Below are positions 1-39,000 of a DNA stretch of 64,000 nt, one piece after another. The notes under the pieces were generated by a model that searched no databases, was not told where the DNA came from, and saw nothing but the letters and a program-made list of their open reading frames with translations. Source of the DNA: Nemertoderma westbladi (taxonomy: Eukaryota; Animalia; Xenacoelomorpha); the NCBI GenBank assembly GCA_032718475.1, contig JAUCBJ010002735.1, positions 1 through 64,000 on the forward strand. The letters are read 5' to 3'. The first letter of the stretch is position 1; each line of letters opens with the position of its first letter. The position numbers were made by a program, and so were the translations under genes.

Positions 1-175
1 GTCAGACTTTGTGCGTAATCCCTGCCCTAACGACCGAAGAAATCTTTGCTTTTAAATTTTTTTCTTCTAACTAACTGATTGAACAATTTATATTTATACC
101 AATTTATTTTAAATGTTTAAGTATCCATAGGTTTGAATCCACTAATTTTTTCATAACTTATTATTTCTGTTCCAG
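1..175 (+). other. 3' part of upstream intron (branch point and acceptor)
   Basis: AT-rich sequence, ACTAAT branch-like motif at 141-146, pyrimidine tract and TTCCAG acceptor ending at 175. Confidence 0.8.
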
Positions 176-12100: not shown

Positions 12101-15064
12101 AGAGCATGTGTCCGAAGAATTCCAGTGGTCTTCTTTCAACACAAATTACAATAGTTACATACACAAGGAAATTGCAAAAGGAGTGGAAGATGAGGATTTT
12201 ATATTTTGGTCACTAACCTCTCCTTACGAAGCCTACAGAGATAATATTAGTTATGCGAATTTTTATTATGATGTTAAAGAGGCCACAAGCATAGGGCACA
12301 CATATCAGAGCATTGTCTTTGGTAATTTTACAGAGGAAATAATTGACTGGGAAAATGTTTGCGAATTCGAAGGAATATCGTACGAGACTATAAATAGAGT
12401 GGAGTGCCAGTGGCTTGGCCTTGGTACTGCTGCTACTGAATTATCGACATCTTGGAATTTTGGATATCAAACATCAGAGTATAACCTATTTGATTATTCA
12501 TTGCCGTTTGTTAAGACATCTCTTTCTAAAGAATATGCTACTTATGACTTTGAAGTTGAACTCAATTTTGGCTATAGTGGAAAAAGCATTGCACTTCTTC
12601 ACGGTGATGAAATTGAGAATGAATTGAAATGGGAATTTACAAAAAGCTTCAACATATTTACTCAGTTAGATGAGGTTTTTGAGCACTATGCTCAGGATGT
12701 AACTTTTTATGAATCAAATATTATACATGATATAATGTTTGGCAAAAGCCACGAAAATTATGTGGATGACCAGGGTCTAACTACAGGGTTTTATGTAAAT
12801 CCGGAATTACGACTTGAATTTGCGGATGAGATCATAGAAGATCATTTTCTTGGTCGAGACCTTCGCCAGTATCAAGATAAGTATCTTGCATACCATGACA
12901 GCAATGAAATTGCATGGAATGAACTTGGAATTTTTCATGGAATTCAACACCAAACTATTGATGGTTGGACGGAGACAGAGATGGGGTTTAGCAGTTCGGG
13001 GTCTTTTTTTTACAATATTGTTTGTTTGGGGAACCAGGATGTTGACCTTCGAGACTGGCAGTTTTGTAATGATGTTATTCGACGGCAACATGTTACAGAA
13101 AAAGCGATGATAGTGGTTGTTGTTGGATGTCTAGAAATGTTGTCCCAAAGAACTTGGAATAAGATCAATGGTGATTGTATTGAGAATGAAGTAATGTATA
13201 TTTATGCTCTGGAATTTAATCTCTATCATAATCTGTACCATGCCAAACTCAGTGAAGAGTACTGTTTGTTTCACAAGACATTTGGTGTTGATGTAAATTA
13301 CACCTGGGGTATAGCTTTTGAATCTACCCATGATTTTGATTATGATGTGTTAGTAGTACATGGATCTAGACAAGCAATTGTTGAGTTTGCTGATATTTCA
13401 ATGACTGTCGATAAATGTGCTGCCAATGTCTCTCGAGTCTTTACAACTGTTAGTGGCAAACAGATTGAAGATTGTGTTCAATGGGATATTGTTATGGAAA
13501 CTGAAAAATTAAATTTTGAAAGAACTGAGTATGAAATCGGAGAACAAGTTGGTTGGTCATTTAGTGGTCAAACAAAATCATTAACTCTGAATCATCCTTA
13601 TTCAGAGATTACATTTAATGAAACAGATAAACTCGTTCCGTATGAAACAACCTCATTCAACACTGCAATGGCAAACTTTGAATTCTACCATCAATCCTTC
13701 GACACATTTGTTGAGAAGGATTATCACGTTATCCAAGGTGTGCCAGTTCTAAATTTCCAAGAATATGATTTTGCTTTTGAGTACTTTAGACGTATTGCAA
13801 CAGAATCTGCATTTTATCAAGAGGATTACTGCATGCCTGAATCAGAATATGAAACCTGGTACAGCAAAACTTGGGGTAGACAAATTGATAATGACGATGA
13901 AATGCAATGGTGCTTTGCTAATCGTTATACCAAACCGTCGCTTAACGTTGATTTTGTTGGCGTTTCCATCTGCGAGTTTGAAATTGAAAGAAACCCAAAT
14001 ATATATTATTCGACAGAATCTGGAACTGCTCTGGAAACTTTAATAAACTGGAATATTTCGGGCGATATTTGTAGGACTAAATTTTCCTACGTCGACGGAT
14101 TTACTTATGAATGCCATGGGTTTAACACAGGTAAAATTGATTATTCTACTTCCTTAGCTATGGCGGATGTGTTATCAGATTTCCAAGGATGTGAACAAAC
14201 AATGGATTTCATAGGCCATCTTTTTGGCGAGGCTAAGTCATGTCTTAGTGTTAGTGACTGGCGTATGCAACGATCTGTCCAATCACGTTGGGTCTGTGTC
14301 CAAGGCCACTCTGTCGATGTCCATGAAGAATGGAATTCAACCAACGCATTGGTTACCCATCGCTCGCAGGACTCTGCTTTAATGACAATTGTTTTGAAAC
14401 GATTTGGTGTTTCAAGTTGGAAAGATCCCAGAATATACTGGGGTTGCGCAATGGATCAACTGATTGAAGCAGAACTCGGAATTCTCACTCCAATGAATCA
14501 AATTCAACGAGTTTACGACCACCCATGTATTGATTACGAAGACCAATTTATTTGGGGTAAATTAACCTGGTCTCGCCCTCAGTATGAAACTCAGGAGGTT
14601 TATTTGTATACATTAATGGAAAATGTATCTGCTAAGAGAGTCTGGGATACTGTCAACGCCTCAGTAGCTTATGCTGAATGGCCTGCATACCACACTGCAT
14701 CTATACGTGTATCTTCCTCTTGGTGTAGTCACGATGAGCTTTCGGAAGTCGTGTGTTTAGAAACGCTATCCCGTCACAGGAGTTATTCTCCCCGACTAGA
14801 AACAGCTGTAGCAGATACAACCGAAATATGCTATCACTCTGCGCTGCTCCAATCACAACGTTGTGTCTACGGTGAGGCTGTTTTAGAAGAAACTGATTGG
14901 CTGTCTGTAATGGAATATAGACGTTACTCAGCACGAAGTGAATTAGAATTTTCTACCCACTGGGTCCAATTGGGTAGGTCTACATCTAGAGATAGACCTG
15001 TTGTTTGGGGAAGAACGGATGACGACATGTTGCCATTGGATACCGGATGGCTCAACGAATTTCG
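176..15064 (+). CDS. Giant exon A (14,889 nt, phase 2-2)
   Basis: Matches ORF 180..15068. Acceptor ttctgttccAG|G and donor CG|GTAAGT at 15065; the ORF 'stop' TAA is part of the donor. Length is a multiple of 3. Confidence 0.9.
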
Positions 15065-18000
15065 GTAAGTATTTAACTTTTGCAATATTTATTATCAATG
15101 GGTTTGTGGGAGTAATTGTAAAATTGGTTCAATATCAATTAGAGTTTTCTTTGTATCGATTCAATGGCATTCCCGTATTAAATTGCGCCGCAAATTATTT
15201 CTTTATTTCGATTTCATTTTAGACCGGAAATTAGCATCAAGGATTATGCCGATGTTACACTTCATCAGGAATGGCATTTGGGGGTTGTCAACATATTGAA
15301 GGCTCCCGTTTATGGTGACGTCATCATTGATGGAGTCATCTTTGATTCAGTACAACATACCGAGGGTGAGTTGTATTTACCCACACTGGACCTACCCAAC
15401 CTATGCAACCAACTATAAAATATCGTGAAAAATCTTACCAAATATTATTTGTAATTTTTATTATATTTGTAATTTTTATTATATTTGTAATTTTATAATC
15501 AGGTAACATATAGTAATAATAATTGAAGCGTGAATTTTTTTATAAATTGAGTAATAAAAAAAAAATATATCCCATTTGTATATATAATTTACACCATCCA
15601 AAATAATTAGATAGCCCAAGGGAACTCGTTGAGCCCATCAAATACACTACAATATTTTTGGTAAATTATAAATGAATTAAAGTTAAACAATGCTGCCCAA
15701 AATGTTATGCAACCATTACAGGTAGTTTTGTTTATTATGTTAAAATATATATAATATTTATAGTTATTTTTTTTGTATTTTAGTTATAATTTTTGATTAT
15801 CGCTCAAATTTTCCTTTCAGGTTATGAATGTCAATATCTGAGGGCTTTCAGTCAAAATTGGAGCGAATGGGTGACCGCTGGTTGTCATATAGACAGGAGT
15901 ATTACCCGAGCTGATGTGTCTACGTACCCAATCTTTCTAAGCGAGTCTCTCATTTGGTATTATAGTCAACCAGCACCCGATTATGCAGATGTAAAGTAAG
16001 TTTGTTCTATCAATATTAGTCCACGCGAACTATTAATTATATTAAAATATATTTAGTGTATTAAAATACACTAAAAATATATATGGGAAGACACTTTTAT
16101 TATTAATTTTTATGTATTATACTTATTATGAAAACTATATAATTATTAATAATAATAATAATAAGTATAATATTGTACTGCTATAATTATTATATTCGTC
16201 ATCAATAAATTAATGCTTCACCTTATTAGAACCACTTTTTATATTGGGTAGCACATGAGTGACTCTAGTTTACTCACCATTATCAATTATCAATGTAATG
16301 CTACGATCGAATATCTTATATACTTTCTCGTTCAGTGATATATTGTTTTTAATATCAGGGTTCCGGATCCTGGAATAATCGGAGGACTCCGTCGTAAAAA
16401 ATATATTTGAATCCAACAAAACTCCGACTCCGACTCTTACCAAAATTTTTTCCAAACCAAAAATTTACAGAAAAATTGAACAAATACTCATATAATTATT
16501 TACTTGGCATTAATTTAAACAATTATTTTCAACAATAATACGTTAATTTTTGAATGAAGAAACCATTTTTTGGTTTAAATATTACTAAAATAAATAACTA
16601 AATTTTGGAATCTAAGTCCGATCATTTGTCAGCTAGGAAAACATGTTTAAAATTATTATTCAGTTTAATGTGGTTGAGATTAAATTATACCGGTATACAT
16701 TTCATCTCGTTACCGGTATAGGTAACTCATATGTTACTGACAGATTAAAATTGTTTTATTTGCAATATGTTAACATTAATTTATTTTCGTTATCTCTGAT
16801 TAATAATAAAGCTTTTCAGTTAACAATGTTTATTTATCTTTAGGTTTAACGATACAACCACGTATTCTAACGCAAAATATCGATTCGACTTGACCAATGG
16901 GGAGGCAGTATACGCTACTGTGAGTTGGCAGAGAGTTTGCGAATTGGGCTTCCGCAGTTCCACGGACACGGCCAATGTTGTTGAGGATTTCGAAGATTGG
17001 ACTCGCGGCCAAACACATCCGGGATACTTTATTTTGTTTAGAAGCAACGAAGTTCTGATTGGGTACGAGTGGGAGATGACGCATGAACGCGGCGCTGCCT
17101 GGCGGAGTACCGACAATGCCAGCGCTAGTTTCCATCAAAGCGCGCAACTTGTTATTGCGAAAACTTTCAAGGCCATAATAGTCGGGGCAATTCTAGAATC
17201 ATCTACATCGTACGATACTTTAGGCTCTATAAAGGGTTATAATAAACATACTGTCAACCAATCATTTGCGGTTTCTGAAGGCTATGCAAAAGTTGGATAT
17301 ATTGTCAATTCCGTATGGTGTTTGGCACTTCAATGCAATTCAGACATAGAAAATGAGTATGTGTTGCCATGGTTGCGATCTCACGTAAGTGAGGATTTAT
17401 CGAGTTTTACATACGAGAATTATTTCGACTTTCATATCGCATCTATACAGACCGTTTCAGTTCAAGGATCTCACCTCTTCTCTTATTCCGATTGGTCCTA
17501 TCTCATGTACTTCGATTCCGAGAAGATGTTGAGCTCAGTTAGCGAAAATGTTTATTTGGAAGAAGTTTGGAATACAGTTCTGATTGATAGAGATGTCACC
17601 TACGGGGAGGCAGAAGATTCAGACTATGACGACCAGTGGGGGGCCGTTAATCCTTATGTAAAGCCTTCCTTCATTGTAGATTACGCAAATATTATCGCAG
17701 AACAGGAGTTCCACCTTACATCTGCTCGTTGTTTCAAGGAGGTTGTCTACGGCAGTGTAAATGCGTCGGACATTAAACATGATCGCTGCTTCAATCTCGA
17801 CGATAGGCGTCTCTCGATCGCTAATGAAGTTGGGTTGAGTAGACCAGGTTTATATACCATATCCACAACGACATCTAGAATGTATAACTCAGCCAAACGA
17901 GTTGGCACCTTGGACGAGTTTGAAATTGCTTTCGACATCGGTGCTAAAGCACCAATGGTAGAACGAGCTGGTTGGTTGGTAAGTGATTTCCTTCTGGAAA

Positions 18001-21000
18001 CTCCCCGGATTGGGTACCGGAACTGGGAGCTCGGTAGAGGAGTCGAAACGGGTGAGATGATTTGATGGCGTGGGGGTATTTGGACAATGTGATTTGTTAC
18101 ATTATGTCAATATATCTTACGCCTTTAATTCATTGCAAACAGCTGTCGGATATACACAAGGGCTAGATTGGGCGATGGCGTTACTTGAAGACCCTGATGA
18201 CATATGGCATTGTGCTGGTCTATATTCCCGTTGTAAATTCACCGTAGATTACGCCGATGTAGGATTTCAAGAGGAGGTATTCTTTACTCGGGGTCGGAGT
18301 TTTAAGAATCTTGTCTATGGATCTGTGCTAGAGTTAACCAACTCTTGGGAAGAAGTTCATCTTATTGAAAATATTTGTTTCGACTCGGGGTTCAGTGGGA
18401 TTGCATCTCAACCAGAGTTCCACACTGTCAGCCAAACCTGCAGTTCTTCTTGGAGTTCTGCTTCAATTGACGATATAGATATTGCGTGGTCATTTGTCGT
18501 CGACAGGTATTACCTAACTCCTAACAAATATGTTGCATCTTTGAGTTTGGAAGACGTACACTTTGGTGAAGTTAACAGAACTTCGCAGTCATTTTGCTGG
18601 GGAAATTCCATTGAACACGTGGTAAAGTCCGACAGCACAACTAACTTGTATGTGTCTACTCCCGGCCATTGTCTTTCATTCTCATCCGAAACTCATGAGT
18701 TTAGGAACAGGGGCCAATCTCGTGTCTCGATTGTGTGGGGTAGGTGTCAACTAGCATCATTCTCTGATGATTGGGAAAGTCTATTCCCATTGGACCGAAA
18801 GGATGCCAGTTATGATTGGGCAACATTTGAGTTGGAATTACACTTTATAAATCAGCATTGTCAATCTGATTTTTCTATTACTTCTGGTGTCTATGAAGAA
18901 CAGACGATAACATGGGAAGTTGTGTATTATATACAACCTGTTGCTATGGTTACACTCGAACGTGAGTATCAAGAAGTTACCGGTTATTGTAGTATTGGTT
19001 GCGGTTCTTCTAGAACTTGGTCTCATCCATTTTCAAACTCCTATAATGATGTTTGGGAAATGGAAAGCAATTTAATATTGCCTTTGTTGCGTGATGAATT
19101 TGCCAAATGGGATGTACAAGATCACATGCAACAGTTCAAAGCAGCTATGTATAATTATCAGATATTTGGAGAAAGTTTTCAGGATGAACAAGATTGGTTG
19201 TGTGCCGATGCTTTATTTATGCATGTCCAATACAATTCGGCTTTAATTACACAAGATTATTATCAATCTCGATCTGGTTATATCATGGATATGAGTATGA
19301 AATGGGCATGGGGAGAGATTTCCAACGAGCATACAGATATACAGTGGTGTCAACCATTTGTTAGGCAACACACTTTAAAGGATTGGGTTGATGTTAACAT
19401 GCAAGAGTTTTTCCATGAGGAACGTTTACGAACCGATGTGGCTGTAACATATGGGTCAATTTTTGTTTCTGACATTTCATGGGACTTTGTTTTTGAGAAA
19501 TACGATAAACAATTTGAGAAGTGCTTTGAAAGTTTTCAGCCCCTTCCTTCATTTCGAACAGCTGCAGCAAATATGTCACTTAGGTTTTGCGAGGCTAATC
19601 AGCTGTTTGATGAAATTCAATTTGGAGTTTGTGAACTTATTTTTTCTCGAACGCCTGGAACAGAACGTGCTGGAATTAATGATGCAGATATTGTTTGGAA
19701 GGATATTGCTTTAATACATAAAAACACAATACATGGACATGTCAATATTTCTATGACACATTGGGAATTCGTCAGTGAGCGTCCAATTGAACGATACTAT
19801 GCCAAGGCGTTAGACCAGCATGATTCAGGCTTTGTTACTGGTAAGTGTTCAACTTTCAAGGCAATTATTTGGGGTGATATTGAATATGGACAATTTGATG
19901 AGGAATATGATTATTTACTGGAATTTCATCGAATAGATTTACATCTCAACGAATGCGATCAAGATATGGAATATGATTTACATTACTTGCAAAAGGACGT
20001 TACTAAGACAGCTGTCTATGGCGATTCAGAAGTTAATTCCATCTTTTGGGAAGAAACATTTTCTATAACATCAGCAAAGACTGATAAATCATTTAGTGTC
20101 AGCATCGGGAAACCATCATTGCAGACTTCTTCAATGGTCTCTAGTGAATCGTGTTCTATTGCAGATTGTAGTTTTACTAGCTATGATTGGGAGTCAACAA
20201 TACCTGTATATGGACCTTCTTACAAACATGACAATGCATTATATTCATGGCATTTGTGGCTGGCAGAAAACCATTGTGGACAAACATCAGTTATTGTTTA
20301 CGGTGACTGCTTGGTGTCAGACATAATTTACGAATTCAGCAACAACACATTTTTGAAGTTGATGTTCGACCATGTTGTTGCGACTGTAGAAATAGGGTTT
20401 CCAGGATTGCATTGTAGAATGTCATATGGCGACATTTGGTGTAGTAGTCACACAGACAATGTTGTTGTTGAGGATGAATGGGCCATGCCCTTTGATGGGG
20501 GTCATGTCAGGTTTGATTATGTTGATATGGATGTCTTTAGTATTGACGAATATAAAGTTGATTCTGTAAGTAAGTTGCTGTTGCTAGGTGACTATATAAC
20601 CAATCAATTAGAATGGGATCATTATTCCCTTATTGCTGGTTACAAAACGTCAATTGCAGAATATTATTTTGAAAACTGCCACGAATTTCACAATATTGGT
20701 TCAAGCAATGTTTATAGTTCATGCAATGCACAGCTGCAAAGTGCTGATATCGAAATGGAAATAGCATCTGACCGAATCCTTCATCCAAACGCAATAGAAT
20801 ATGCAACTGGAAAGGAGAAGTATTGGGATGTTTTACTTAAATACAAGATTAATAGTCCGATCATCTATGGAAGTACAATTGAGGAAGGTGACAGTTGGGA
20901 ATTTGTTTGGGATTCAAAGATTCAACGTGTTACTGAGATGGCAATTATGCGTGAGGAATTCCAATTCCTAAATTCCATTTATACATCACAATTCTCTTCT

Positions 21001-24000
21001 ATTTATAATTTCTGTTTAATATCCGAATTTGATTTTGATCATCATTTTGTGCAACACTTCGAAAAGTCATCTTCCTGGGTGGATTATGCTAATATTTTGT
21101 ATGAGTTCTCTTCGATTGAGCAGAATGCTGTCTCTCAGTTGTTTTCTATATATGGCGAAGGCATAAATGAGGCCATGGATTGGGATAGGGTGGAGGTGTT
21201 TCATGGGTACCGAACTCAATCTGTGCCAGAATCAATTGTTCATCAGCCTGGTAAGCAAATTGCGAAGGTAACACTTCATTCATCAAATGGCATATCATTT
21301 ATGGATAATGAAAGTCATTCTACAGAGTTTCCACGAATATTGCATCAACATGCATCTGCTACTGATCAAGTAATTGTTAGTCGCTCTAATGAATGTCTCA
21401 ATAGGTGTAACATTGCGAAGTTGAGACAGTATTTTGGATCAGCAGTTTTGGATGATAAGGAATGGGAATGGGCAAATAATATTTACGGCGAGTTAACAAC
21501 CGATCGGGCTTATATTCAGTCAAATATCTCATTTGAGGGGTACAAAATTAATGCTAATAATTTTGTGACTTGGGGAGACTACTGTGAAATTGTATTTGAG
21601 GTTGATTATGACCGTTTGATAAATTGTGAGAAGGTGAACCTCAATTTAGATCATGCCAATGTAGAGATGTGTCTTGATACATATATGACACATGTAGAAG
21701 TAAAAGGATTTCCTATTCATGGTGTTTATTCAGATGAAAACATTCTATATGAAGATGTGGAATTTCTTCGTGGGCACACATTGCTGCAGGCAAATTATTT
21801 ATATGAGGGAAAATCAAGTTTCGCAAGTGCCGATGTACAATGGGAAACAAGTTTTACATTTGCTGAAGTTGAGGATTCGCAGCCACTATGGAGTGATTCT
21901 TTGCCTAAATCTAATATTCAACCAAAGTTTGATATGGCATTGGTTCTCATTGAGGAAGGAAACGTATATGCTTCACCAACTATATGTTTATCAAAGTGTC
22001 TGGGTGAGGGGATTATAGAGACTGTCGCTTTGGAACGCGCACTTGACTATGTATATGAGATATGCAGTGGTAAAGCTAGTCTACAAACCACATATTATCA
22101 TTTGATTGCATTTCATAACATTCGACGTACACTAATGTGGGGAAGTTACCGCGATGGTGCAGTTGAATTTGAAGAAGAAAGATTACATCCTTTGGTCAAA
22201 GTGCAGAATCATATCGCAAAGGCGAACTGCAGTTACCATTATGAAAATGTGAATGATCACTCAAATTCTAGTCTTTACTCAAGTCAAGGTAGTGCTATTG
22301 TAGCCATAATAAATTGGGAGGAAGTCTGTATCTTTAAAAGTTACAAATCAATTACTGCAAACGACGATTTTGCTCAAAAGACTGGATTTTATTTCGCTAA
22401 GTTGCAATGGTCTAAACTAACATCCATTGCCAAGGAAACCTCCTTAAACATTGATTACTCACATGCAAAAGATTTACAGATAAGTGACCCAGAAATCAAT
22501 ACAGCTGATTGTGTATCATATTATTTGCAATTAAACAACTACCCTAAAGTGGAATATTTTTCGGTTTTTGGACATTCAGAAGAGTTTCACTTTGATTGGG
22601 AATATGTCCATTATTCTTATATTTCACCGAAGTTGGAATATGCTTCAATATCTGCACATATGGACCTAACAAAACCTTCTTCTCATTATAGTGCTACTTT
22701 TGAGTTTGGACATGGTATTTGCAATGATATTGAAGTTCAGTGGCAGTGGATAATCAAGCATGTGCCAAAATCCACGAAATTTGATCAAGTTAATATATTC
22801 TGGGAACAATTCACTAACTATGCAGTGGCCCATGCAAAAGATGTTTCCATATTGGGAAGTGCTTTCGAAACTATCGCAGAGACAGACAACTATTGCAAGA
22901 TAGAAAAGATACAGAATGAAAGAATCCAACAATCCAGCATAGAATGGAGGGCATTCGATATTGCAGCTTATTCAGCAATAAACATTTGGAGTTTTGCTTC
23001 CCATGATACATTAACAGGGCCTGTTTGTTATATCGAGATTCTTGAAAAACAAATTCCGAATTTTGAAATGTTATCATGGGATATTCAAGAATCGACCTTT
23101 GGATATACAGCATCAACAAGGGGAACCATAACATATGGTAGCCAATTCGAGCAGGAACAAGAGTTGGACTGGGCCCAGGACTTTTTTGTTCATATTAATA
23201 AAGAATGTGCTGATCAACTCATTGATTACTATATTCCTGGTTACAGTCGGAATGTGCAGCAGAGTTTTAGTTGGGCCTGGGCCAGAGTCGATTCAGTGGA
23301 TGATGAAATATGTTTTGCATTGTTATATTCAAAGCCTAAACCTGTTGAAGACATTTGTGATGTTATTTTCGAAGATTATTCTGATGTAAGTTATGCCATT
23401 GTCAACAAAGAGTTGGTTTTGGGTGAAGTCATGCAGGATGAAATTGTATTAGATACTGTTTATCATACTTCTGGATTTAATATCCATAACGCATTTGTTA
23501 GTTATGTAGGAGATACAAGTTGGTACTTTGCTGGGTGCCATATCAACTACCTGTGGTCATTTGGCGACCTTATTGAAAGCCATGACTGGTGGGAGTATGT
23601 TGTAGGATTGAGTATGCGCAAACCATTGACAGATACTGCATTAATGTCAATGGCAACTTCTTACCAGTTTGAATATGCATTGTATTTTAAGGCAGTGCAC
23701 GAAGGTAATGCTAATTATGAAAATGTAAACTATGATTATGCACTGCAGTGGGATAAAATGAAACATACATCATTGGCTCAAAGTTATACACACTATCGTC
23801 AAGAAGGGAATGGGTATGAGGCAAGGCAAGATATAATATGTGGCAATTACTTGGAAAATAATGTTGATATGTCTTTGGAAATTATTTACCCATATTCCGT
23901 TATAAAGCATGGCAAAGAAATGGCTGAGATTATGTTACATGAAGAACTGATTAATAGCGATGCCGAATGTCATAGAATATCTACACTCTCATCATATAAT

Positions 24001-27000
24001 GAATCTCTTGTGGATTGGCACATCTGTGGTGATTTTGAAGATATCAGCATTCAAAACCTTTTTGAGATATACCACACTGAATTTGGATATTGGTACGCTG
24101 GGAGTTCTAGCTATATAATATGGGGTTTTGGTGTTCAGACATGGTTTTTACAAGAATTCATTTCCCTTTTAGAAGCGGAGTTTGTTAGACCACCAAATGT
24201 GTTTGCAGTTCCACGTTTATCTACTAGTGAGTTCATTGTTAATTCCAATAAATATTTTTCATGTACCTGTGGAATCGCTATTGAAGAATATTTCGATATG
24301 GAATACACTAAAGACTTAGAAGTCATTGAATATTCAGAAAAAGCCACCTTTCGAGATAATTTTGTGTTTTTGTGTGACGAATTCAATTCATATAAATGCA
24401 TAATATTAGGAATGTGCTTAGAGGCAGAATTCGATGTTAATCTTGAATTCAATCAACCTTTCCGAAATTTTGATAAGGAATATGACTTTGCTTCAACAGG
24501 ATACGAAGGGACGGAACTTTTTTATGCAATTTTCCAACTGAGAAACAGTAAACACGGATGTGAAATTCGAGAAAGCATTGATTGGTTTCATGTACAAACT
24601 ATTGCTTCAATTCAATTTGAAGAAGCGTTTTTTTCAGAACTGAAAGATTCCAAGTTTTCATATGCCGGAATTAGTTATGACTACAATATTTTAGCAGCCT
24701 TCGGATTTGCAGAGTCGTATACATGGAATATTGCTGAAGAGTATTCAGCCACAAAGTATCAAACAGAATACGCATTTTATGATGAAGAAGTTGATTATTT
24801 ATGTCGATATTTTCAATACAAGTCTGCTTTGGTCAATGGAAATGCGACTAGTCATTTCCAATTTTTTGACTTCGCATTTGAGTTTGAAACAATAGTGAAC
24901 AGACATCACACTTATATTTATGAAGTTGCTTATGAGCTTAGAAGCAGAGCCCAGGTTGGCCTTGACACTTTTATTGGTCAGGCAAAGGTTGCTGTGGCTG
25001 ATGAAGAATGGGAATTTCCTTTTCAATTCGATAAATTTGAAGCTGAGCATTTTAAAATAGAATCATCTTTTGAGGCTTATTTTAAACAATTGCAGTATAC
25101 AACTACACGAGCTACTGTGCTGGGAAATATAGTAATGGCTGAAATTGCTTCGGGAATTTCATATCCTTATACTACATTGAGAAGTCACAACGCATTTAGC
25201 TCGTATGCACCAAAATGTTCCCTTCAAACTGTATCAACATCAAGACAGTCTATCTTCCAATTTGGATCTCAACGTATTGAGGATGATATATGGTTGTATT
25301 GTGAACCGTACACCAGTAGAGAAACTGAATACAGTGCTGCGGCTTTTAAGGATATACACATTGATCTTCATGATGTGTTTTCTTCTCCAGCTATTTGCGT
25401 CCAAGGTAGTACCTGTGAGGATTGGATAAATTGGACCCATATTATGGAATGGACAACTTCTTCAGTATACGATTATACGGAAGTTGAATTGGCAATTGAA
25501 TTTGTTCCTCAGCACTCACAGAAAAGATTTTATGAAACTTGGGGCGATGCTGCTTTGATTTTAGATGACAGAGAATTTGAAATTGTCCTTTACTCTCAAG
25601 TTGCTGCCTCACAATTATCTTATGCAGATATACATGATGCGATTCATTTTGATGGGTCTCAAGCCGTTTCACATCAAGATTTTGTTTTTGGAATGTATTA
25701 TGAGACTATCCTTGAACTAGAATCTGTAGGTTTTATAGAGCAGGTTCATAAATCAGTTGCTTCTATCCATAATATCAGACAGCACACTTTATATCAAAAC
25801 AATTGTAACCTTCAGTATACTTTATCATATGGTACTGAAACTGAAGCAGAGGGGCCCACTGATTATGTTGAAAAGCATACCAAACTTATACCACAAGAAC
25901 ACTATTCAAATATATCCATCCATGATGTACATTGGGATATAGTGTCTGTGTTTCCTAAAATTGTTGTTAATGGCAACATCTCATATAATTACGAAATTTC
26001 GGAAATTTCGGATGTTGTAGGTGGTAGAATGCCTTCTTCTCAAGCTTCTTTAGAAGATGTATATTTCTGGTATAGAAACGAATATATTGTAGATCGGCAA
26101 ATAACATGGTGTAATGGGTTTCAGAATACATTGGAGTCGGAAATTATGTGGTGCTTCCCTCTTTGCAAGCTTCAGTATGAATATGACTCTGCCAAAATTT
26201 TGACGGAAGCTAATATGTTCAGACATGAAGCTAAATTCCATCATCATTCCCAAATTGGAAGGTATATTGAAGATGGAGTTTATTGGAATCATGTTTCAGC
26301 ATTTAGGGCGCCAATATCACAAACAATAGAAGAAGTTAATCGTTATTGGCCTGCATTATCTTTTGCTAAGAAGTGTTCAAATCTCCGGTTTGACTTTTCA
26401 AGAATCGAATTTACATATGATGATTTTGAGTTTGTCGACAATATTTACTCAAAATCACTTCCCATTGAAGAATCAACTTGTACATTTTATGAAGGCTTTC
26501 CAGAATTTAAACCGTTGATAAGAAGTGTTAATATTTGGGGACACCAAGGGGAGTTAGAAAATGAATGGTTGTATGTAGAACATGTTGATACATTTATTCA
26601 CACCTTTTCATTTGGAAGCTTTTACGATATATAACGAAATCAGGAATATAGGTAACTACTATGAATCATTTGAGTGGTGCAGTGCCATTGTCGATGTAGT
26701 TGAGATTGTTTATGATTGGGTGAATGACAAGGATAGATTACAGCTCTCTTATGAAGAAGCAGACTTTACTTGCGAAGGTATTTCATTATGGAACCGGAGT
26801 TTTACATCCCAGGTGAAGGTTTATGGGTATACTTCATGTTTTACAATTGAATGGCATCAAGTGTCTTATGACACATCTTATAAGACACAAAAATGTACTA
26901 TAACATTCCAAGATTGGTCAAATTTTATCAAGGCATCACAACTTTCATTTAATATACAAGGCATTGGTAAAGAAACTGATGGGACAGAGTTTGTGGATTA

Positions 27001-30000
27001 TCATGGCTGGTTTTGTGTGCCAATTATATCATCTGTTACAGCCACTTTAGGTATAGAATCCACACAATCTCTACACACTGCATCATCATATTCTTTCAAG
27101 ACTAATGGCTTCCAATCTGAAGATGTTGTTGACTATGATTTTTGTGTAGAATTTATGAATATAAAAGTGGGATATAGTTATGATGTGAAGTATGAATTGG
27201 GATTTCAAAACCAAAATTACAATTCTTCAGTGTCTAGTGCATTAGCATTAGCTAAACAACTTGACATAGAATATGGATGGTATAGTGCAATACTTTATCA
27301 TCGGGATTCGCCATTGGCAGACAATGCTGCTTTTGCGTTACAGGAAGATGTTATAGATAAATCTCACTTTGTTAGTGTTTCTCTTGTCTACGGTTCCTTC
27401 AAAGAAGAATTTATTGTATTCCAATGTTGTGATATATTTAACGGTTATAATATCAATCGTGCTGATTCGTATACTGTTGAGAAACAAGGTTTACACATTG
27501 CTGCCTTAAACTCATCTCGACGAGTGGCATCTAGTGTGACTGAAGATATTTTCGAAAGTTGGTTCTTTCTCGATTCCACATCTTTTGGTTCTGTTACAAA
27601 GGAGCAAGTTGGATATGTTGTTATACAGAAAAATTTGCAATACTGTGACAAAAAGGTTCAGGAGTTTATTTTTGGCAACGAACTATGTAGCACAATAAAT
27701 TGGGACTTGGCAACAATGATTTCAACACATTTAAATTTAATCGAAACTGACGTCGAACTTTGCCAGTCTTCATTCATGTTGATCCATAACAGCTTCACTG
27801 CATACCTTTGGGGTTTTGGTGAGTTAAAATCAATTGACGTGGCATGGGGTTACTGTCTTCAGAGATCGAAACAATTTTCCATTTATGAATATGCATCGTT
27901 TATGGGTGACTATAAGGTAATGGATTATCAGCATGAAAGCCTTAATGCTGAATGCTGGGGAATGTCTAAAGAAACCTCCATAGAGTGGAATCAGCTGTCA
28001 GAGTTTAATAAAACCCAATTACATAACACTATCTCCAGTTATGTTAGTAAACCAGGGTTCAATGTGGTGCATGGAGACTCTAACATTGTTGGGAATTGGG
28101 CTGACATTAATTATGATGTTGAGCAATGGGATTATGGGATTCAATTTGTTTTATCGCGCACAACCTCGACATTTGCGGAAGAAACATCATCTGGATTTCA
28201 TCTTGGTAATCAAGTTCATCAGTTATCCGTTATTGTAAACGCAACCCACAGTGTTTCCCACGAGACAATAGACTATCCAAATGACTTTTATATTAAATTT
28301 AAACTTGACGAAGCTCTCTGGAATTTATTTAATACTGATATGATATTTCATGGCCATATTGAAGACGTTATTGTTTGGGGCAACGCATTCGATAACAACT
28401 ACGATTTTATTTATGAATATTTAATGTGGTTTAAACCAGAGGACCACCATGTCGATTTTGCCACAAAATTTTATTATGACGATCGTGTCAATGAGAGAGT
28501 GGCTGTCAGTCAGACAACCTTAATGGGCAATTCATCACAGAGTATTAGTGATCTAGAGTATACCCTTGAGTTTGGGAGACAGCAGCTTGCCACAGCTGTA
28601 TCTACTATTGAAAAGTTATCTGGTTACCAGTCTGTGAATATATTTGAATACATGGAACTAATGATTGCTGAGCACAATTTTGGATTAGAGATGTTAGAAT
28701 GGTCGGATAATATCAATATTAGTAATATTCCAAAGGATAGAGCCCATTGTCAAACTGTTTACTTTCAACGGTCTACTGGTATTGTTAGACCAATCCCTTC
28801 TATTTTTGGAAACTGTATGTACAATGAACTTGAAGAATGCCATGAAGATGAATTTTTCACTAGTTATAAACTAAGTTATGTGGGTGTTGCGGTAGAGGAA
28901 AACATATTGGAGAACAACATTCGTGGTAAAACTGATGTTGGTCTTATGAATGCAACGGAATTTACACTTATCATTGACTGGGAGTTTCTATTTATGAGGG
29001 AAGATGTTAAAACAAGGCAAGATTCTGCATTTGTTGACAATGAATCCTTTGTTACTAATAATGTGTCTTTGAAGGATCAAGTTATTTGTTGGGGAAATGA
29101 AATAGCTACTAGTACCGATTACTTTTCATTGTCACTTTTGTATACCAAATTACCACAACTCGAAACTGCAATAGTGTTGGAACACAGTGTGTTAACATCT
29201 AATTATCAGCGTACTGCCATTAATTCAAGTTATTTCCAGGCGGAACAACACCATTATTTAACTGAGTGGGAAAAAGTGATGGGTGATGAGGCCATAACTT
29301 TTGATTACATGTATGCCACAGAAAGGGTTGACTTCTTTGATAAGTATTTTGCTTCCTCCCAGTGGTACAAAGCATGGGGCTTTGAAGTATCAGATTCTAT
29401 TACATGGACCACTGTGCTTAAGCACCATGAAAGTATTAATGATGAACATGCAGAATTGACTCTAGCATATGATAGATTTTGGTGTTATTCTTCTGCAATA
29501 TATACATCCATATTGTGCATGTTTGAACAAGACCATTTAGAGGTAGAATCAATTTTTTGCCAATTCTTCAAGAAGGATCAATCCAAATTAGAATTTGCAG
29601 TTTTGTCTGAAGGCAATATTGAATTATGCACAGCAGGTTACAAATTCAACCAAACTCCGTTGATGCAAAGCAAGGAACGTGCCCTAGAATGGAGCACTAC
29701 GGAAGCGTTGTCAGTCTCCAAATATACTGAAAAGGTTTCTTGGTCTGTTTCTGGTTATAACATTGAAAGTGAAGTAATTAAATCGTGTTCAACTGTGCTA
29801 TCTACGGCAGTTGAAAGACTGTTTGATGGTGAATGGTTTTCTCTTGAACAATTAAATGTTTCAGAATTTGAGGTTGAATCTGTAGAAGAATTATATTCTT
29901 CCGTAGAGTTGCTTAGGCACAATACTCATGTATCCCGCACAATTTGTGATTTTACATTAAACTATACATATTGGGAACAAGTTACTCTATTCAAGCCGCA

Positions 30001-33000
30001 TTACCAAACAAGTAATTCCCATTATAAACTGGAGTCTGATATGGCCACAGAGACTTATATTATTAGTCATCAAAGGTTACAAAGCATTGCTTTAACTAAT
30101 GTCATTGACATGGAATGGCTTTGTTTGGATGTTAATTGTCGATTTGGAGTGTCATCTGAAAAAGTAATTGAAGTATCTGATAATATTCATGACGAGAGGC
30201 TGGATAGTGTTTTATCAGTTTCGATCCTTGGTATGCATTTAGATTCCGTCATTATTTGGCAAAGTTTGCAAAAATTTAATGTTGAAAAACTCTACCTGGA
30301 ATTGGCTCATGAAATATTATTATCATCTTTTGAAAATTATCAGTTTTCTAGCTTTGGCATTTCTTTTTGTAATGCTGCTGAGAATACGTTATTGCCTTTT
30401 GATGATAAGGCAATATCAATTGAAGCATTACCTGCTACAGATAAAGCTGATATCGTATTACATTCAACCAAACTCTCTGGTCCTGGATTTACAACCAAAG
30501 GCACTGCGCTTGGTATTGATAAATCAGTTGAATTGAAGTGGTTCAACACAGAAATATGTGAAACATTTTACACCAAAAACAATGCACCTTGGTCAACCGT
30601 AGACTTATTCCCAGGTTTAATCGCAAGAAGTAGTGAACAATATACTTCGGGAAACAGCGAAGAAGTTGACAGTGATGTGTTTATTTTTGCTCCTGAGTTT
30701 TTTAAACGAAATATATTTATAGACCACACCTCCATAGCATATGAAACTGATAGAGTGATGCAAACAGCCTATATGGAATCTCAGCTATGTTATGGGAACC
30801 AGATTCAAGCTAAAGGTACATTGGATTACTCTGAAACTATGTCTACTCATATACATTTGGAATGCGCCTGTGAAGAAGAGATTTTGCATTCGTTTGACCA
30901 ACAACTTAATGTATGCACAATAACGGCACGGGGATTGGGTGACATCAAATTTGGCGATGATTTTGAAATATGTTTCCCGAATAATTTCTGTGACTATTCT
31001 GCAGATTGTGCGTCACTGAGAATTGAACTCTACTCCCAAGGATATGCTGCAGTATGCGGCAATTATTTCCAACTAGGTGTGGGTTATTCAAATACTATTC
31101 TTTGGGATTATCCCCTGGATTGTATCTTAAATTTTAAATTATTTTATTTGAAAGAAGGGGATGTTGATGGATTTGTTTCTCAAGAAAGCCATTGTTTTAG
31201 AGAAACTGTATACGGAGATGAATTGTCAGACGACTTGCAAGTTCTTTGGGATGAACTTAACTGTGTTGAATTTTACCACCATGATTTAATGCATACAAAG
31301 TTAGAGTTTATTGAGAAACTAACTTATACTAAACCTGTAACAGAAGTTATAACCATATTTGGAAGTTTGGCAGTAAACGAAGTAGAACTTTACCAAGATG
31401 AGTTGTTTATTCAAACTAGTTTAATATTCCAAACTGCCGATATTACGTATGTTGAGTACTCTTTGAATCGGAACCTTCGAACTGCAATTAGAAATATATT
31501 ATTATGTTGCCATGTCGAAGAAAAACTTCACAATTGGGACATTACAAATGATATTTTCTTTGATCACAGCGCTGAAACAGCAGGCAGCTATACCCAAGAG
31601 TATTTTTCTTCTTATGTTGATGAAATTGATGCAATTATAGTTTATGGAATTTGCATAGAAGTTGTGACACAGTGGGATGAAGTACTCTTTGCACCTCCTC
31701 AACTGTTTGAAAACGTTGTCGAAAATGTTGCTGTAAATAATATTAGTTTACATTATAAAACGTCAAAGGGAGTCGCAATGGCATTCGCTGAAGCTGACTT
31801 CGACGACTCCTATTGGATATACTTGTGTGAGATCAACATTGAGGATACTGTTCTTGAAACAGTATCTCAATACAATGAAGACCATATTATTCTAGAATAT
31901 GGAAAGGCCTCTAAGGTATTGAAAGAAGGCTCTGCTGAAATATCATATATTATTATTGAGTTTGTTTCCCAAGAATTATTTAACGTTCATACTGATCACC
32001 TAAATATTTCTCAAATGCCAAATTTGTTTCAGAGAGTTCATAAAATGGATAGTGTAAAAAAGTGGGGTTTTGGTGGTCTAAATTGTGGAATGCAACTACA
32101 AAGATGTGATATTATATTAAAGGTTACGGATGACATGGCTATGGGTTCACTTGTGCCAAATAGTCTGTACGAACTGTTTAGTGGTGGCACATATGTTAAT
32201 GTATTACATTCTGCAAGTCAAAATGAATTTGTCTCTGAACGAGTAAGTGATATTGGTGTAAAAATTATTGAAAATATAAACTTTTGTGTTTATGACGAGT
32301 TTATTCAAGAAAAAGTATTTCATGGCTTTACTAAACCAATTGGATTTGGTATTCAAAATACGGGATTTGGACAGTTCTTAGAAACAAGTGATTGTTCTAC
32401 CAATCCATATGAAACTATATTTGTGAGTTATTCTTCAGATGATAATCAACAGACATCAGCTGTTGCTCAGGTATTTAAAGTTTTATGTAATGCCACTGTT
32501 GACAATGTATTTCTGCAACATGAACTTGATGACATTTATGATGAAGCATTTGATTACGACAAGGCGACTTCAATATGTGAAGACCAATCTTCAATGCAAA
32601 CATCTATGATTTTACACGAAGTCTTAAATGATTTAGCAAGGGTTACTGCAGTTCATGGAATTGAGTGGGACTTTATAGGTGGCAAAGTAGATAAATTTAT
32701 CTTTGAAATGGAGAAAGGTTTACTAACTTATAATGTTGTAGACTATTTGCTTTGCATTGAGGATTATAATACTATTCTATTTAAACCTGAATTAATAACA
32801 GAATGCCCAGTAAGTTGCGATGTTAAAGATGATTTAACGCACTTTAAAATTATTGGTAAATCAGTAATTACAGTGAATGGTTGCAGTGATGATATGACAT
32901 ATGGAATTGATGATGAAGACTTAGAAATTCGCTCCATATCACAAGCCACAGAAGCGCAATGGAAAATGGTATTTGTATGTTTAATTATGAAGCCCTCAAT

Positions 33001-36000
33001 TTCTGAAGTTAGCATACATGGGATGTCATCAATTGGATTTGATATGTGGGTTGAGCCCGTAGAGTTTGAGATTGAGCTGGAGGGGAACCGTGTTGATAAC
33101 GTGATGAAGTATGACCCAGAATTAACGATGGATACGAAAATTAAACGAAGTGAAATGATGGGTTATGGCGAGCAATTTAATGAGGTATGGCAACTTCATG
33201 ACTTGTCACACATAGAAGGATACAACTGTGAATTAGTGCAGATGAGCTTGATTCCCTTCTGTTTTAATAAGGGTTTTCCACAGCATGGATTTATTGTAAG
33301 GGGTAAAGAATCATATGGGGAATTTACACACCCTAATGAATTCAGTGATATTGACCCTTTGACATATTTAAAGACTGATTTCATAATTGAAGGGGATATT
33401 GAAAGAACTAGTTTCATTCCTCGAAGGTGGGCAACAGTGATGGGTGTTGCTAATTTAAAGGAATGCGATGCAGAAGAGGCTGTCGCTGAGGTTATTTACG
33501 ATAATCTCGCCAGTGCTGCTTTGCATACATACCAGAATTGGTTTGTTCATCCAATAAAGGCATTGGGAACAATTAACCGAGGACAGGCAACAGAGAATGA
33601 TTGCTGTATTGATTGGTATAAGGGCACTTGGTATAAACCTACAATTCCCGTTGATCGAGCCAATCTCCACGAAATTCATCGGAATATATTTTCTACATTT
33701 GAGGTATGTCAGGAAGTAACATGGCGTGAAACAAATACACTCATAATTACGTATGAACACACTGAAACTGACAAACCGGATGCTTTTGAACCAGTAACTT
33801 ATGAATCAGTTAAATTTGTTGTTGAACCACATCCTAATCTTAATTCATGTATCATTGAATTTGTGTTAACTTATGGTTTGGGAAATGAAGTTCATAATAT
33901 GTGGTATAATATGGAAACATTTACTGCGGAATGCCGCGAATTCACTGTTATGCGAAAGGAATGGAATAATTTAATTCCATATGCACAATGTTTTAAAGAG
34001 AGAGTGTATTGTCTATTAGATCTACAAAATCCGAATGCTACATGGTCAACTGCTGAAATATTTAGATTTATTTATGATATATCTTATACATTGGAACGTG
34101 TTGAACAGGAAAGGTCGTGGGAAGAAAGTTATCAAAGGAAGATTATCGAATTACATAGTTCCTATGAAGAGGATATACAATTAGATTCATATAAGGACTT
34201 TGTAGTGGATGTCTATAAGTATGAACTTGTCAGACCGAAAATGATTCCAGTGCCATTTGAAATAATAAAGAAGAAACCAAAGCCACATGCCCAATCTTTT
34301 GCGATGAAGATGCTACTGGGATGGGAATCTGGTGATCTTATTGACATTGTCCCAAGCATTAACGCTCACGTATCATGGAGTAAAGCGTTATCAAGGCCTC
34401 CTAAGATATCCTCTGAAATTGTGTATGGAAAACAGGTACAGGAGGATATATTGATACCAGAGGATAGGTGTGATGATCATAAATCAGTCAGTTTAGAAAT
34501 TGATAATGTCCAACTTGTAAAAAGTACTTCGGAGTTATCCAAAAAGTTATGCGTAGACTTTAATCTCGTTCATTGTTTTGCCATCCAAGCGGTTGATGAT
34601 ATATTTACCAACAAAGTGGAACAATTTTATGAATTACTGGAAACCAAATGTGCAAGCAAGTGTTACGAAAGAAATTATATGATAAAAGACTATAATGTAG
34701 AAACTGTGGATTTTAATAATATGAGTAAGGTTGAGAAATTGGAACGAGCATTCACAAGGTGTTTTTTGACATCTTTCCAATATGATACTGAGAATGTGTT
34801 AATTGGAATAGAGGAAGATTTTGATTGCACCAGAGTTAAGGCACTTGCTCCTCTTTTGTTCTATGCCCAATCTAGTATTGCTTCGGATTATGTTGAAACA
34901 CCACATGAATTTTCGGTTAAGCAAGTTATATTTGATTATACTACGGAGGTAATTCATGAGAAGTGCAAATATTACACTCCATCTGTTAACATTATTTTCG
35001 GTTTTGTAAAGAGCACTTTTCTCTTCAGCCCCGAAATTGAGGTTTATGGTGCTGATTTTGCTTGGAATGCATTTGAATCAGCCTCTGAATCTCTTGCAGT
35101 TGACGTCATCTTCCACAATGCTTCAGCCAATATCGCAATTGGCTTATGTTCATCAATTATTGAAGGTATTCAGTGGATAACTACTGGTATTTGTAGTACA
35201 CAATCAATTGAATATCAGAAAATGGAGATTAATTACGAAAGCGAATGTTTTACCAAAGATGTCAATCATGACGTTGTGTATGCTGTTTGTAAAGGAGATA
35301 CTAATTTTACATCGGAATTCTGGGAAAATGTCAAGTCATGTATGTTTAATTTGCCACAGGAGGAGTCAATTTCATGGTCAACTATGGATATCTCCTATGA
35401 TACATACTTATTATGTTTGAACCTAATGCATGGTTCTATTGGGATCAATAGACTTTATTATAGTGAAGCTATTCCATTTGATGGCGTTTATAACATAGAC
35501 CATACCACAGAAGTTGCAGGAGATGTAGTATCATTGAAACGAAGTTGTTCCTCTTTTAGTAGGATATTGTGCGATGCTGAAAGTTCTGACATAATGCAGA
35601 CATATTTTATGACTCATGTGTTTATTGGAGAAGTTCCCTCTAAAGATCAAACTGTAATTAACTTTCAAGAACATTTTGAAATTACCAATTTAACAAATGT
35701 AGTGGTATGTTATGGTATGTATCGTGAAAATGATATCTTCTGGGAGAATGTTAACACTGTATTACCTTATAAAGTTCAAACATTGAACTTCAACTGGGAA
35801 ACAACTAATCCCGGATATATACTGAGCGCACATAAGTATCAACCACGAGTGATGGCTTTTGGTGACAAGTTACCAGCCGTTCAGAGTTGGTCAAAATCTA
35901 TCCCAAAGGAAATATCTCGCTTCCAAGTAGAGCAAGGAGTTTTTGTCACAGATAGCTACTACTGGCTTGAGCAGAATGCATCTATCTCAATATCAAATTC

Positions 36001-39000
36001 TCGTGGATTTGGATATGAAAGTGAAACTAAATGGGTTGAGATATGGCAAACATTTGACGAACCATATCCATTGAATGTCACTGTCAACGAGGAACCACAT
36101 TTGCTTATTAGCCAGAAATCCATGGTTCCCAAATGGGGTAAAGAACGTGATTCATATGGTGGATCATGGGATGAACTAGTGACATGCAACTTTGAGTATA
36201 TGAATAGTAATTTTACGAAGTTAATTAGTGAAAGTCGTACTTGGTGGCATGCGATCGCTATGGAGGTTATATCGCATGGGTGCTCATTAGAACATTGGGA
36301 CAATTTGGAAGGTACAATGCCTTTCTATGCCATAAGGTATGTTGATATTGTAAATATAGTTGAAGTTGGCTATGATCTTAGCAATGCTTCTGTTAGAACA
36401 GTCCAACCTACTCAAGGCATTCCATTACTGGATTGGGATGGTGACTCTGAGAATTCAAATATATTTCTACCGATGTTATTTGAAATTGAGAAAGTATCAC
36501 TTTCTAGTGAAACGCAATCATTTAATAATTATCATTATGATAATCAGGACAGATTTGTTGGTGATGCCATTGAGAATGAAGTACTATGGCTCTTTGCCCA
36601 TCGGCAATTCTTTGGATATAAAGAAGAAGGATTAGTTGCTAATATATGTTACATTAATCTAATTAGCAATGCCATAGGGAATAAGGAAATTGTTTGGGGG
36701 ACACCATTGTCGTTAACTCCAGAAACATGGGATAGCTTGATAAATAGAAAACCACATCATTTTGTATCATGTAATGCCAATAGTATCTTATTTGATTACG
36801 GATATGCCACTCAAGGAACAATATCTTGCTTTAAAGAAAACGGCAGAGAATTGGAAGAATCTATCGAGTGGGAGAGTAGTCATGTTTTTGATAATTACTA
36901 CAGAAGAGTTGAAGAGTTCTCAAAAAGTGAAACAATTTGTGTTGAACTTGAAAGGGTATATAATATTTATTTCAGCTTAGATTTATTTATGTCAGAAATT
37001 TGCTGGTATTCTCCAAAGTTTGAATCACTGCTGCCCTTTACAGCTGATAAAATAAACACAACAGTAATCGGATATGACATTGTGGTGAATCAGTTTGACA
37101 TTCTCGTTGATTCATATTCGAGATATTGCTATGAAGGGCGAGGTGAATTTCAGTACATCTTCTTTTATAATTGTGAGGCTTATGTTGAACCAAAACGAAC
37201 TAGTGCAGCTCATATTGTAACCGAGTGGGGATTCCAGACAGAGGAGACTGATTTAAATTCTGTCCAGGTTTGGGCAGAAGGGTCGACATATTCTGTCGCA
37301 TGGGAAAAGACTGATCAATATTTCGGTAAATATATTCCAAAACAGCAAAATGCCTACGAGATAGATAATGTTGATGAGAATGATGAGTTCCCCAATGTTT
37401 CTTATGCGATGGTCTACAATAAATACATAGAGGAGGAAATCCGATGGGCCTATGTGCAACAACTGGAAAGTATTGAGTGGAATTTAGAAAGTGCCAATGA
37501 AATGAAATATAGTGGGAAATTTACTAGTGTTTATAAAATGGCAGTTGCTCATATCATGGGGGTTGGCTTGCAGAATATAGGAAATAAAGTCCACAACTGT
37601 AATGTATTTGATCATTTAAATTTTAATGTATGTTACGCATCATCGTCAGACATTGAACGCAATAACAATATGGCGCACCATTGTAGCTCATATCTTTATC
37701 GAGGCGATGCATTGGTCAATGAAATTCCATACGAAGAAACACCAGAATGCGGCTGGGAAAGAAGTTTGGCGACGGCATCGTGGGTTCAGGTGATCCCATA
37801 CTCACAATCAGATAAAGAGATTACAACATTTACAATATTTGGTGTTCCTATTCTATCACAAGGAAGAGGCCAAGCTGGAAATTTAAAGGAGTTTACCAAG
37901 GAAATTACCGCTGAAAAAGCAGATTGTGTATTTGCACCTGTCTTCATGAGACCATCAGTTTTCATTGCATTACATATAATTGAACCATCATCTTTGACTC
38001 CTGTAAACTCTGAATTTGCAAACTACTTCTTCTCAGAGTCTTATGAACTTTGCCATGTCACTGCTTCCATTAGTTATTGGGATTCCTTAACTGTAAGAAG
38101 GGGTGTTAGTTCTCAAATGATGTTATGTTCTAAACCTGACTTTTGGAATATAATTTATGAAAACTTAGATAATTTATCATCTGAGAAATATTTGTACGAT
38201 GTGGCTGAAACAGTTTATACTTCACAGTCAACAGTTGTTGCTGACAAAATTACTTTTGTTTTAGAGGCAGTTTCAATTGATAATAAAATAACATGGGATA
38301 ATTACACGGAAGCACCTGACAGTCAAAGCTGCAAGCTGAACTACTCATATGAAACGGGACGGCTTGTAACTGCTGGTAAAACTTCATCGAAGGAATTTTG
38401 TGTTCCATGTTGTGAATTTGAATTGAATGGAATAGAGGCTGTTACAAGTAGAGATGTTGTATCAATAACGAATGAACATGCTGTTACATCTACTAAATGG
38501 TATCAATTAGAACGCGAGATTGAGTTATCCTTTACTCAGATGAAAGGCAAAGGTGTATTTAGTAGTGTTGAATTCTTACATGTTGGTCGTTTCAACAAAG
38601 AAGTTCCAGATGAGGAGTGTGCTGATTTGAAGGAAAATTTAAGTATTTTTGATTATGAATTCCATATAGAAGTTGGATTTTCTCTGAATATGGCTGAATT
38701 CAAAGTCGTTAAAGATGATACTCAGTGTGTGGGTGGCTGGTTTAAGCATGTGATAGGTGATGAAGTAGTTGATGTGACATATGGAGATGTGATGAGACAT
38801 TGTGGTGACATTGGTGTAATTACTAATTATGGGATGGAGTTTATTAATGTAATGCATTGGGATATCACTGAGAAATACGTACTTTCTCAACAAGAATCAG
38901 CCCGTTGTATGGAAATATTTGAGGATTCGCAACTTCGCCATCATGTTTTTGTTGGATGTGAGTTTGGTACTGGTCAACAAATATTGTGTGAAGAAAACTG

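Follow-up and report, generated by a model that had tools for sequence, protein, structure and literature searches.

Results

Predicted giant exons and their repeat

The window, by which we mean the whole 64,000-nt stretch of Nemertoderma westbladi DNA analysed here, contains five long open reading frames (ORFs) on the plus strand, at 75-15068, 16824-18065, 18061-26634, 26579-52084 and 54085 to the end. Together with splice-like signals near their edges, these ORFs suggest three very large coding exons separated by two introns:

176..15064, plus strand: predicted giant exon A, 14,889 nt, from ORF 75-15068 with an acceptor, a donor and the periodicity; phase 2 to phase 2, 47-aa repeat
15065..16843, plus strand: predicted intron 1, 1,779 nt, GTAAGT...TTTAG, GC 0.28, from its splice-like ends
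16844..52080, plus strand: predicted giant internal exon B, from its splice-like ends; phase 2 to phase 2
52081..54185, plus strand: predicted intron 2, 2,105 nt, GTAAGA...TTCAG, from its splice-like ends
54186..64000, plus strand: predicted giant exon C, running off the window, from ORF 54085-63999 (open at its 3' end) and a phase-2 acceptor; 47-aa repeat

Both predicted introns combine GTAAG donors with pyrimidine-rich AG acceptors and lie in phase 2. Within predicted exon B the coding frame is interrupted twice, at sites that we call break 1 and break 2. As it stands in the window, this exon is 35,237 nt long, a multiple of three plus two. Without two surplus bases, at 18060 and 26596, it measures 35,235 nt, which is 11,745 codons' worth, and it contains no stop. 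With the exon ends taken from the splice signals, the region 16844-52080 would be one 35,235-nt exon of a giant protein made of 47-aa repeats; support from short-read contigs covers 16600-28600 of it. A 94-aa frame within predicted intron 2 (53509-53793, minus strand) matched DUF6451 with an E value of 1.5e-4; its 22.1 bits fall short of the curated cut-off of 28, and it is presumably a LINE/retrotransposon relic.

The predicted exons A to C encode at least 19,975 amino acids with a period of 47 residues that is also seen at 94-95, and 329 units score above the threshold of a repeat profile. The pattern G-x8-W occurs 149 times, compared with 24 times in shuffled sequences. A second pattern, [DE]-W-x-x-[LIV], is about threefold enriched over all large ORFs (44 occurrences versus 14 in shuffles). 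We take this pattern to resemble the Atg8-interacting LIR motif; its enrichment may simply reflect the core of the repeat. The protein is acidic, 13.9% of its residues are aromatic, and its most hydrophobic 19-residue window reaches 1.84. An AlphaFold2 model of three units, built from a 65-row alignment of internal repeats, was extended and of low confidence (pLDDT 55.9, pTM 0.27), and Foldseek returned no match to it. From such weak evidence, our best guess is that the protein may serve as an extended repeat scaffold or ruler.

The repeat array is not uniform. One gap of 476 aa between repeat anchors was seen. By eye, residues ~2400-2700 of the ORF labelled B3 (window ~33400-34700) are more charged and less repeat-like, and this part is possibly a different domain.

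Searches for relatives returned little. Six ORF pieces matched none of the Pfam families, and there were no matches among PDB sequences. Word-based protein searches upheld none of 699 candidates for residues 1-3000 of B3 (lengths 4,675-14,877 only) and none of 5,485 for the repeat alignment A2, the latter being weak evidence with lengths of 250-2,000 only. A phmmer search with 599 aa against 1.84 billion representatives gave a single match (P0001, E 3.5e-5), which we rejected as a homolog on inspection: it is a singleton and an unrelated repeat protein. None of 18 pattern matches in metagenome contigs was upheld, and the best ESM Atlas score, 0.82, is a lead only. In a non-exhaustive look at the literature on giant ankyrins and on exons of giant or record length, the 47-aa repeat was not described; we claim no size record.

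Two reading frames meet at ATA-TAA

At break 2, the upstream ORF (18061-26634) ends with the codons AGC TTT TAC GAT ATA TAA, while the +1 frame stays open over 26579-52084. The two frames overlap by 53 nt, and the upstream sense frame ends at 26631. The window sequence therefore bears out how this site had been described in the sequence-only reading, namely as an ORF that closes on ATA-TAA inside ATATATA with coding continued in the +1 frame. The same reading had suggested, from a by-eye alignment, that the upstream frame continues in use as far as the stop, and had proposed that a -2 slip on ATA could re-pair there, with loss of one AT unit by mutation or assembly error as the fallback.

We compared this configuration with that produced by chance. 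Simulated single-base insertions in these ORFs gave a median two-frame overlap of 65 nt, and the overlap was at least 53 nt in 61% of 7,741 trials; the 53-nt overlap at break 2 is ordinary for a random one-base insertion. Perfect -2 re-pairing was possible at 30 of 2,142 out-of-frame stops (1.4%), and re-pairing by either +1 or -2 at 109 of them (5.1%). The slip-friendly context at ATA-TAA is uncommon, not extreme.

Programmed ribosomal frameshifting, by -2 re-pairing of tRNA-Ile on ATA or by a +1 shift, would join the two ORFs at this site, and the perfect -2 re-pairing speaks for it to the extent that the rarity of such chance stops allows. Break 2 has no heptamer of the XXXYYYZ type. The downstream segment 26635-26734, where a stimulatory RNA structure might lie, folds at z = 0.11 and is not unusually stable, and the window contains no Rfam match.

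Short-read contigs lack one A upstream of the stop

Contigs of four of the six listed short-read runs (X1 to X4, with X5 and X6 left out) were compared with the window over 16600-28600. Three of the six runs, from two studies, contain the stretch, with shares of 0.88, 0.80 and 0.73, and none of the six is recorded as RNA. X2 and X3 were made from the same sample, and X1 possibly from the source sample, which makes two samples at most. The comparison revealed four sites of interest:

26596, plus strand: surplus A, the true position of break 2; absent from the contigs of X1, X2 and X3
26627..26633, plus strand: ATATATA, followed by TAA to 26634; a stop met solely through the surplus base upstream
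18060, plus strand: surplus A causing break 1, the same type of defect; missing at full depth in the same three runs
16705..16725, no strand assigned: two-allele mosaic patch in intron 1, with X1 records 1 and 2 as separate half-depth contigs

None of the three covering runs has the A at 26596, and each omits it at full depth (X1, 53.8 of 53.8; X2, 31.2 of 31.2; X3, 299.7 of 299.7); X4 has no cover there. Where the window has TTTATT, the contigs read TTTTT. A single X2 contig (record 9, 30,573 nt) spans 16600-28600 unbroken with four gaps, including those at 18060 and 26596, and X1 record 8 and X3 record 18 each show one gap from 24187 to past 28300. In ATATATA itself, no indel is listed for any run, and the loss of an AT unit was rejected on this ground; no joints are listed either. 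That accurate short-read data of the species lack the base at 26596 is what would be expected of an assembly error. Three runs from two samples, each one base shorter at this position and uninterrupted, agree with the fallback of a one-base mutation or assembly error, and they are the kind of result named beforehand as speaking against recoding.

The position of the indel matters for the proposed slip. In the contigs, the frame changes at 26596, 36 nt ahead of the stop; use of the upstream frame up to ATA-TAA is not confirmed, and the residues IHTFSFGSFYDI are out-of-frame text. Plain read-through at break 2 gives the +1-frame stretch FTPFHLEAFTIY. With the break absent from both samples that have cover, there is no conserved signal for a slip at the stop, so that programmed frameshifting is largely refuted by the short-read contigs and we regard it as highly improbable.

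In a low-depth contig of X4 (depth 4), an extra T was seen at 17404, which is probably an error in that contig.

Frame signals around the switch are weak

Codon usage favoured the upstream frame by ~10.5 bits ahead of 26596 and, past this position, the downstream frame by ~2.4 bits. The repeat itself was less clear. In a 47-column repeat profile built from sequence away from the breaks, the disputed stretch of 12 residues scored 1.5 bits when read in the upstream frame versus -0.3 in the contig reading, and a cruder profile gave 2.1 versus -2.4. Scoring both frames, as had been suggested in order to place the switch, thus yielded a slight preference for the upstream frame, which favours a programmed slip, but could not place the switch position. 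True repeat units average 3.4 bits (sd 3.1) in the 47-column profile, and the gap between 1.5 and -0.3 falls inside their spread. Among 82 stop-free wrong-frame controls, the mean was -4.8 bits and the 95th percentile 0.9, so the upstream-frame value of 1.5 lies higher; this unusually repeat-like wrong frame accounts for the earlier by-eye impression that the upstream frame continues to the stop. The repeat-profile and re-pairing signals on one side and codon usage on the other are weak and roughly cancel, and they do not outweigh the direct sequence from three runs.

Spacing of the repeats bears on a further possibility. A short GT-AG intron at 26571-26643 (73 nt, GTATGT...ATCAG) would remove the stop and restore the frame, and a similar candidate of 91 nt lies at break 1 (18052-18142). 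Both lengths are 1 mod 3 and both give stop-free readings. Among 1,749 simulated insertions, however, 157 (9%) produced a frame-restoring GT-AG pair by chance, and in the allele of the runs the intron at break 2 would be 72 nt long and superfluous. Splicing would also break the 47-aa register, with the next anchors at +24 and +71 and a 65-aa step at break 1, whereas the contig reading keeps it, with the next anchors at +48 and +95. We therefore rejected the 73-nt and 91-nt introns, which restore the frame and lose the register; that either is used appears very improbable, and even when this possibility is pooled with a programmed slip, the pair stays close to negligible.

Break 1 and a mosaic patch point to a consensus over two haplotypes

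Both surplus bases, at 18060 and 26596, are an A beside T. After removal of the base at 18060, the repeat spacing reads 47, 47, 48, 47, 47, 47, 48, and break 1 should be dropped as a recoding candidate, like break 2. A 40-nt piece just downstream (18077-18116) matches another locus with six differences in several runs, probably a chance or repeat match.

In intron 1, X1 has two alleles at 16705-16725, in contigs of 131 and 136 nt with depths of 19.7 and 17.2; X3 agrees with one of these alleles and X2 with the other. Such half-depth alternative contigs indicate a diploid. The window is five edits from each X1 allele, the edits being interleaved, and the alleles are 10 apart (5+5=10). An interleaved patch of this kind is what a consensus over two haplotypes yields, and it points to a collapsed-haplotype consensus.

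Also in intron 1, contigs of X1, X2 and X3 match short pieces (16687-16757, 16669, 16789) and then diverge from the window, which hints at a small mobile element or a dispersed repeat there.

Discussion

Origin of break 2

Break 2 is not a real feature of the species and most likely not a case of ribosomal frameshifting. We consider it very probable that it is an assembly artefact, in which the consensus of a heterozygous eukaryotic genome wrongly gained an extra A at 26596. The assembly may have merged two haplotypes, and one possible route, at which we can only guess, is that an A/T heterozygous site beside the T run was written with both letters. The extra A would shift reading into the wrong frame, which would meet a chance stop 36 nt on, at ATA-TAA. 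The gene in the sequenced samples would be read straight through in the window's +1 frame (beginning with FTPFHLEAFTIY), so that no slip is needed.

The strongest competitor is that the extra A is real, a null frameshift allele private to the assembled individual or haplotype that would cut the protein short at 26632 and likely expose the transcript to degradation. An exon of 35 kb offers mutation a large target, and the region is highly polymorphic, with 143 substitution rows in the 12 kb compared (16600-28600). Contigs drop minor variants, such that the absence of a minor allele from the assembled individual is not provable from them. Among the 40 rows listed of the 143 (up to 26244), 35 are exonic, with 12 synonymous, 23 nonsynonymous and no stop changes, as against an expected synonymous share of 0.20-0.25, and constraint is weak or unproven. 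Yet for a null allele, a single haplotype would have to have gained two +A insertions independently and no other nonsense change across 19,975 codons, and the adjacent mosaic patch shows that the window is not a clean haplotype. Because two separate +A insertions would be needed, and because of the mosaic at 16705-16725, we favour an assembly error and hold a null allele to be unlikely.

Under an assembly error, two surplus bases split the predicted 35-kb exon into three ORFs, a defect that would wreck annotation of the gene. Break 2 should be dropped as a recoding candidate, as it is gone in independent data.

A predicted giant repeat protein

We lean slightly towards the view that the locus holds a true internal coding exon of 35,235 nt, and that this exon and two more giant exons in phase 2 jointly encode a protein of at least 19,975 aa that is so far undescribed. 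This protein would consist of more than 300 diverged 47-aa units (G-x8-W-[ED]-x-V), is predicted to be extended and not globular, and its likely role would be to serve as a linear ruler, or scaffold, running along a filament. The three predicted exons add up to ~60 kb of coding sequence, for which neither a family nor a homolog was found, and both the repeat and the size of the exons would justify a study of the locus in its own right.

Comparison with known systems

The nearest architecture is that of the giant ankyrin exons, which, as far as the available part of PMC5135030 describes them, are likewise very long, internal and frame-preserving, with tandem repeat arrays and no detectable homologs across taxa. 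The exon of Drosophila Ank2, which is the longest in Table S4, is given there as 27,804 bp and has 76-aa repeats; predicted exon B, at 35,235 nt, is longer. The 47-aa repeat does not appear in that table as available. The two differ in composition. Giant ankyrin long exons are reported in the same part of the paper to contain >55% Ser, Glu, Thr, Asp, Lys or Pro residues, whereas these residues make up ~35-37% in each of four large ORFs of the window (~36%), and by this measure we rejected a giant ankyrin identity. Pfam searches with the six ORF pieces found no ankyrin core within the window; the flanks lie outside it.

ATA-TAA also recalls the frameshift sites of Euplotes, where, according to the portion of PMC10235951 at hand, AUA_UAR gives a +2 shift. 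Both have the same six letters before the continuation. The Euplotes sites, however, shift by +2, whereas break 2, which other samples do not show, calls for +1 or -2. The +2 frame at break 2 dead-ends after six codons, at TAG 26649-26651, and a Euplotes-type shift was rejected accordingly.

A closer parallel is found among assembly errors. In the excerpt of PMC8092372 available to us, polishers are described as making haplotype mixtures and as having left unrepaired an indel in the coding sequence of a heterozygous region. Break 2 is like these cases in being a single-base indel in a coding region, with allele-mixed sequence nearby and a frame that is restored by short-read contigs.
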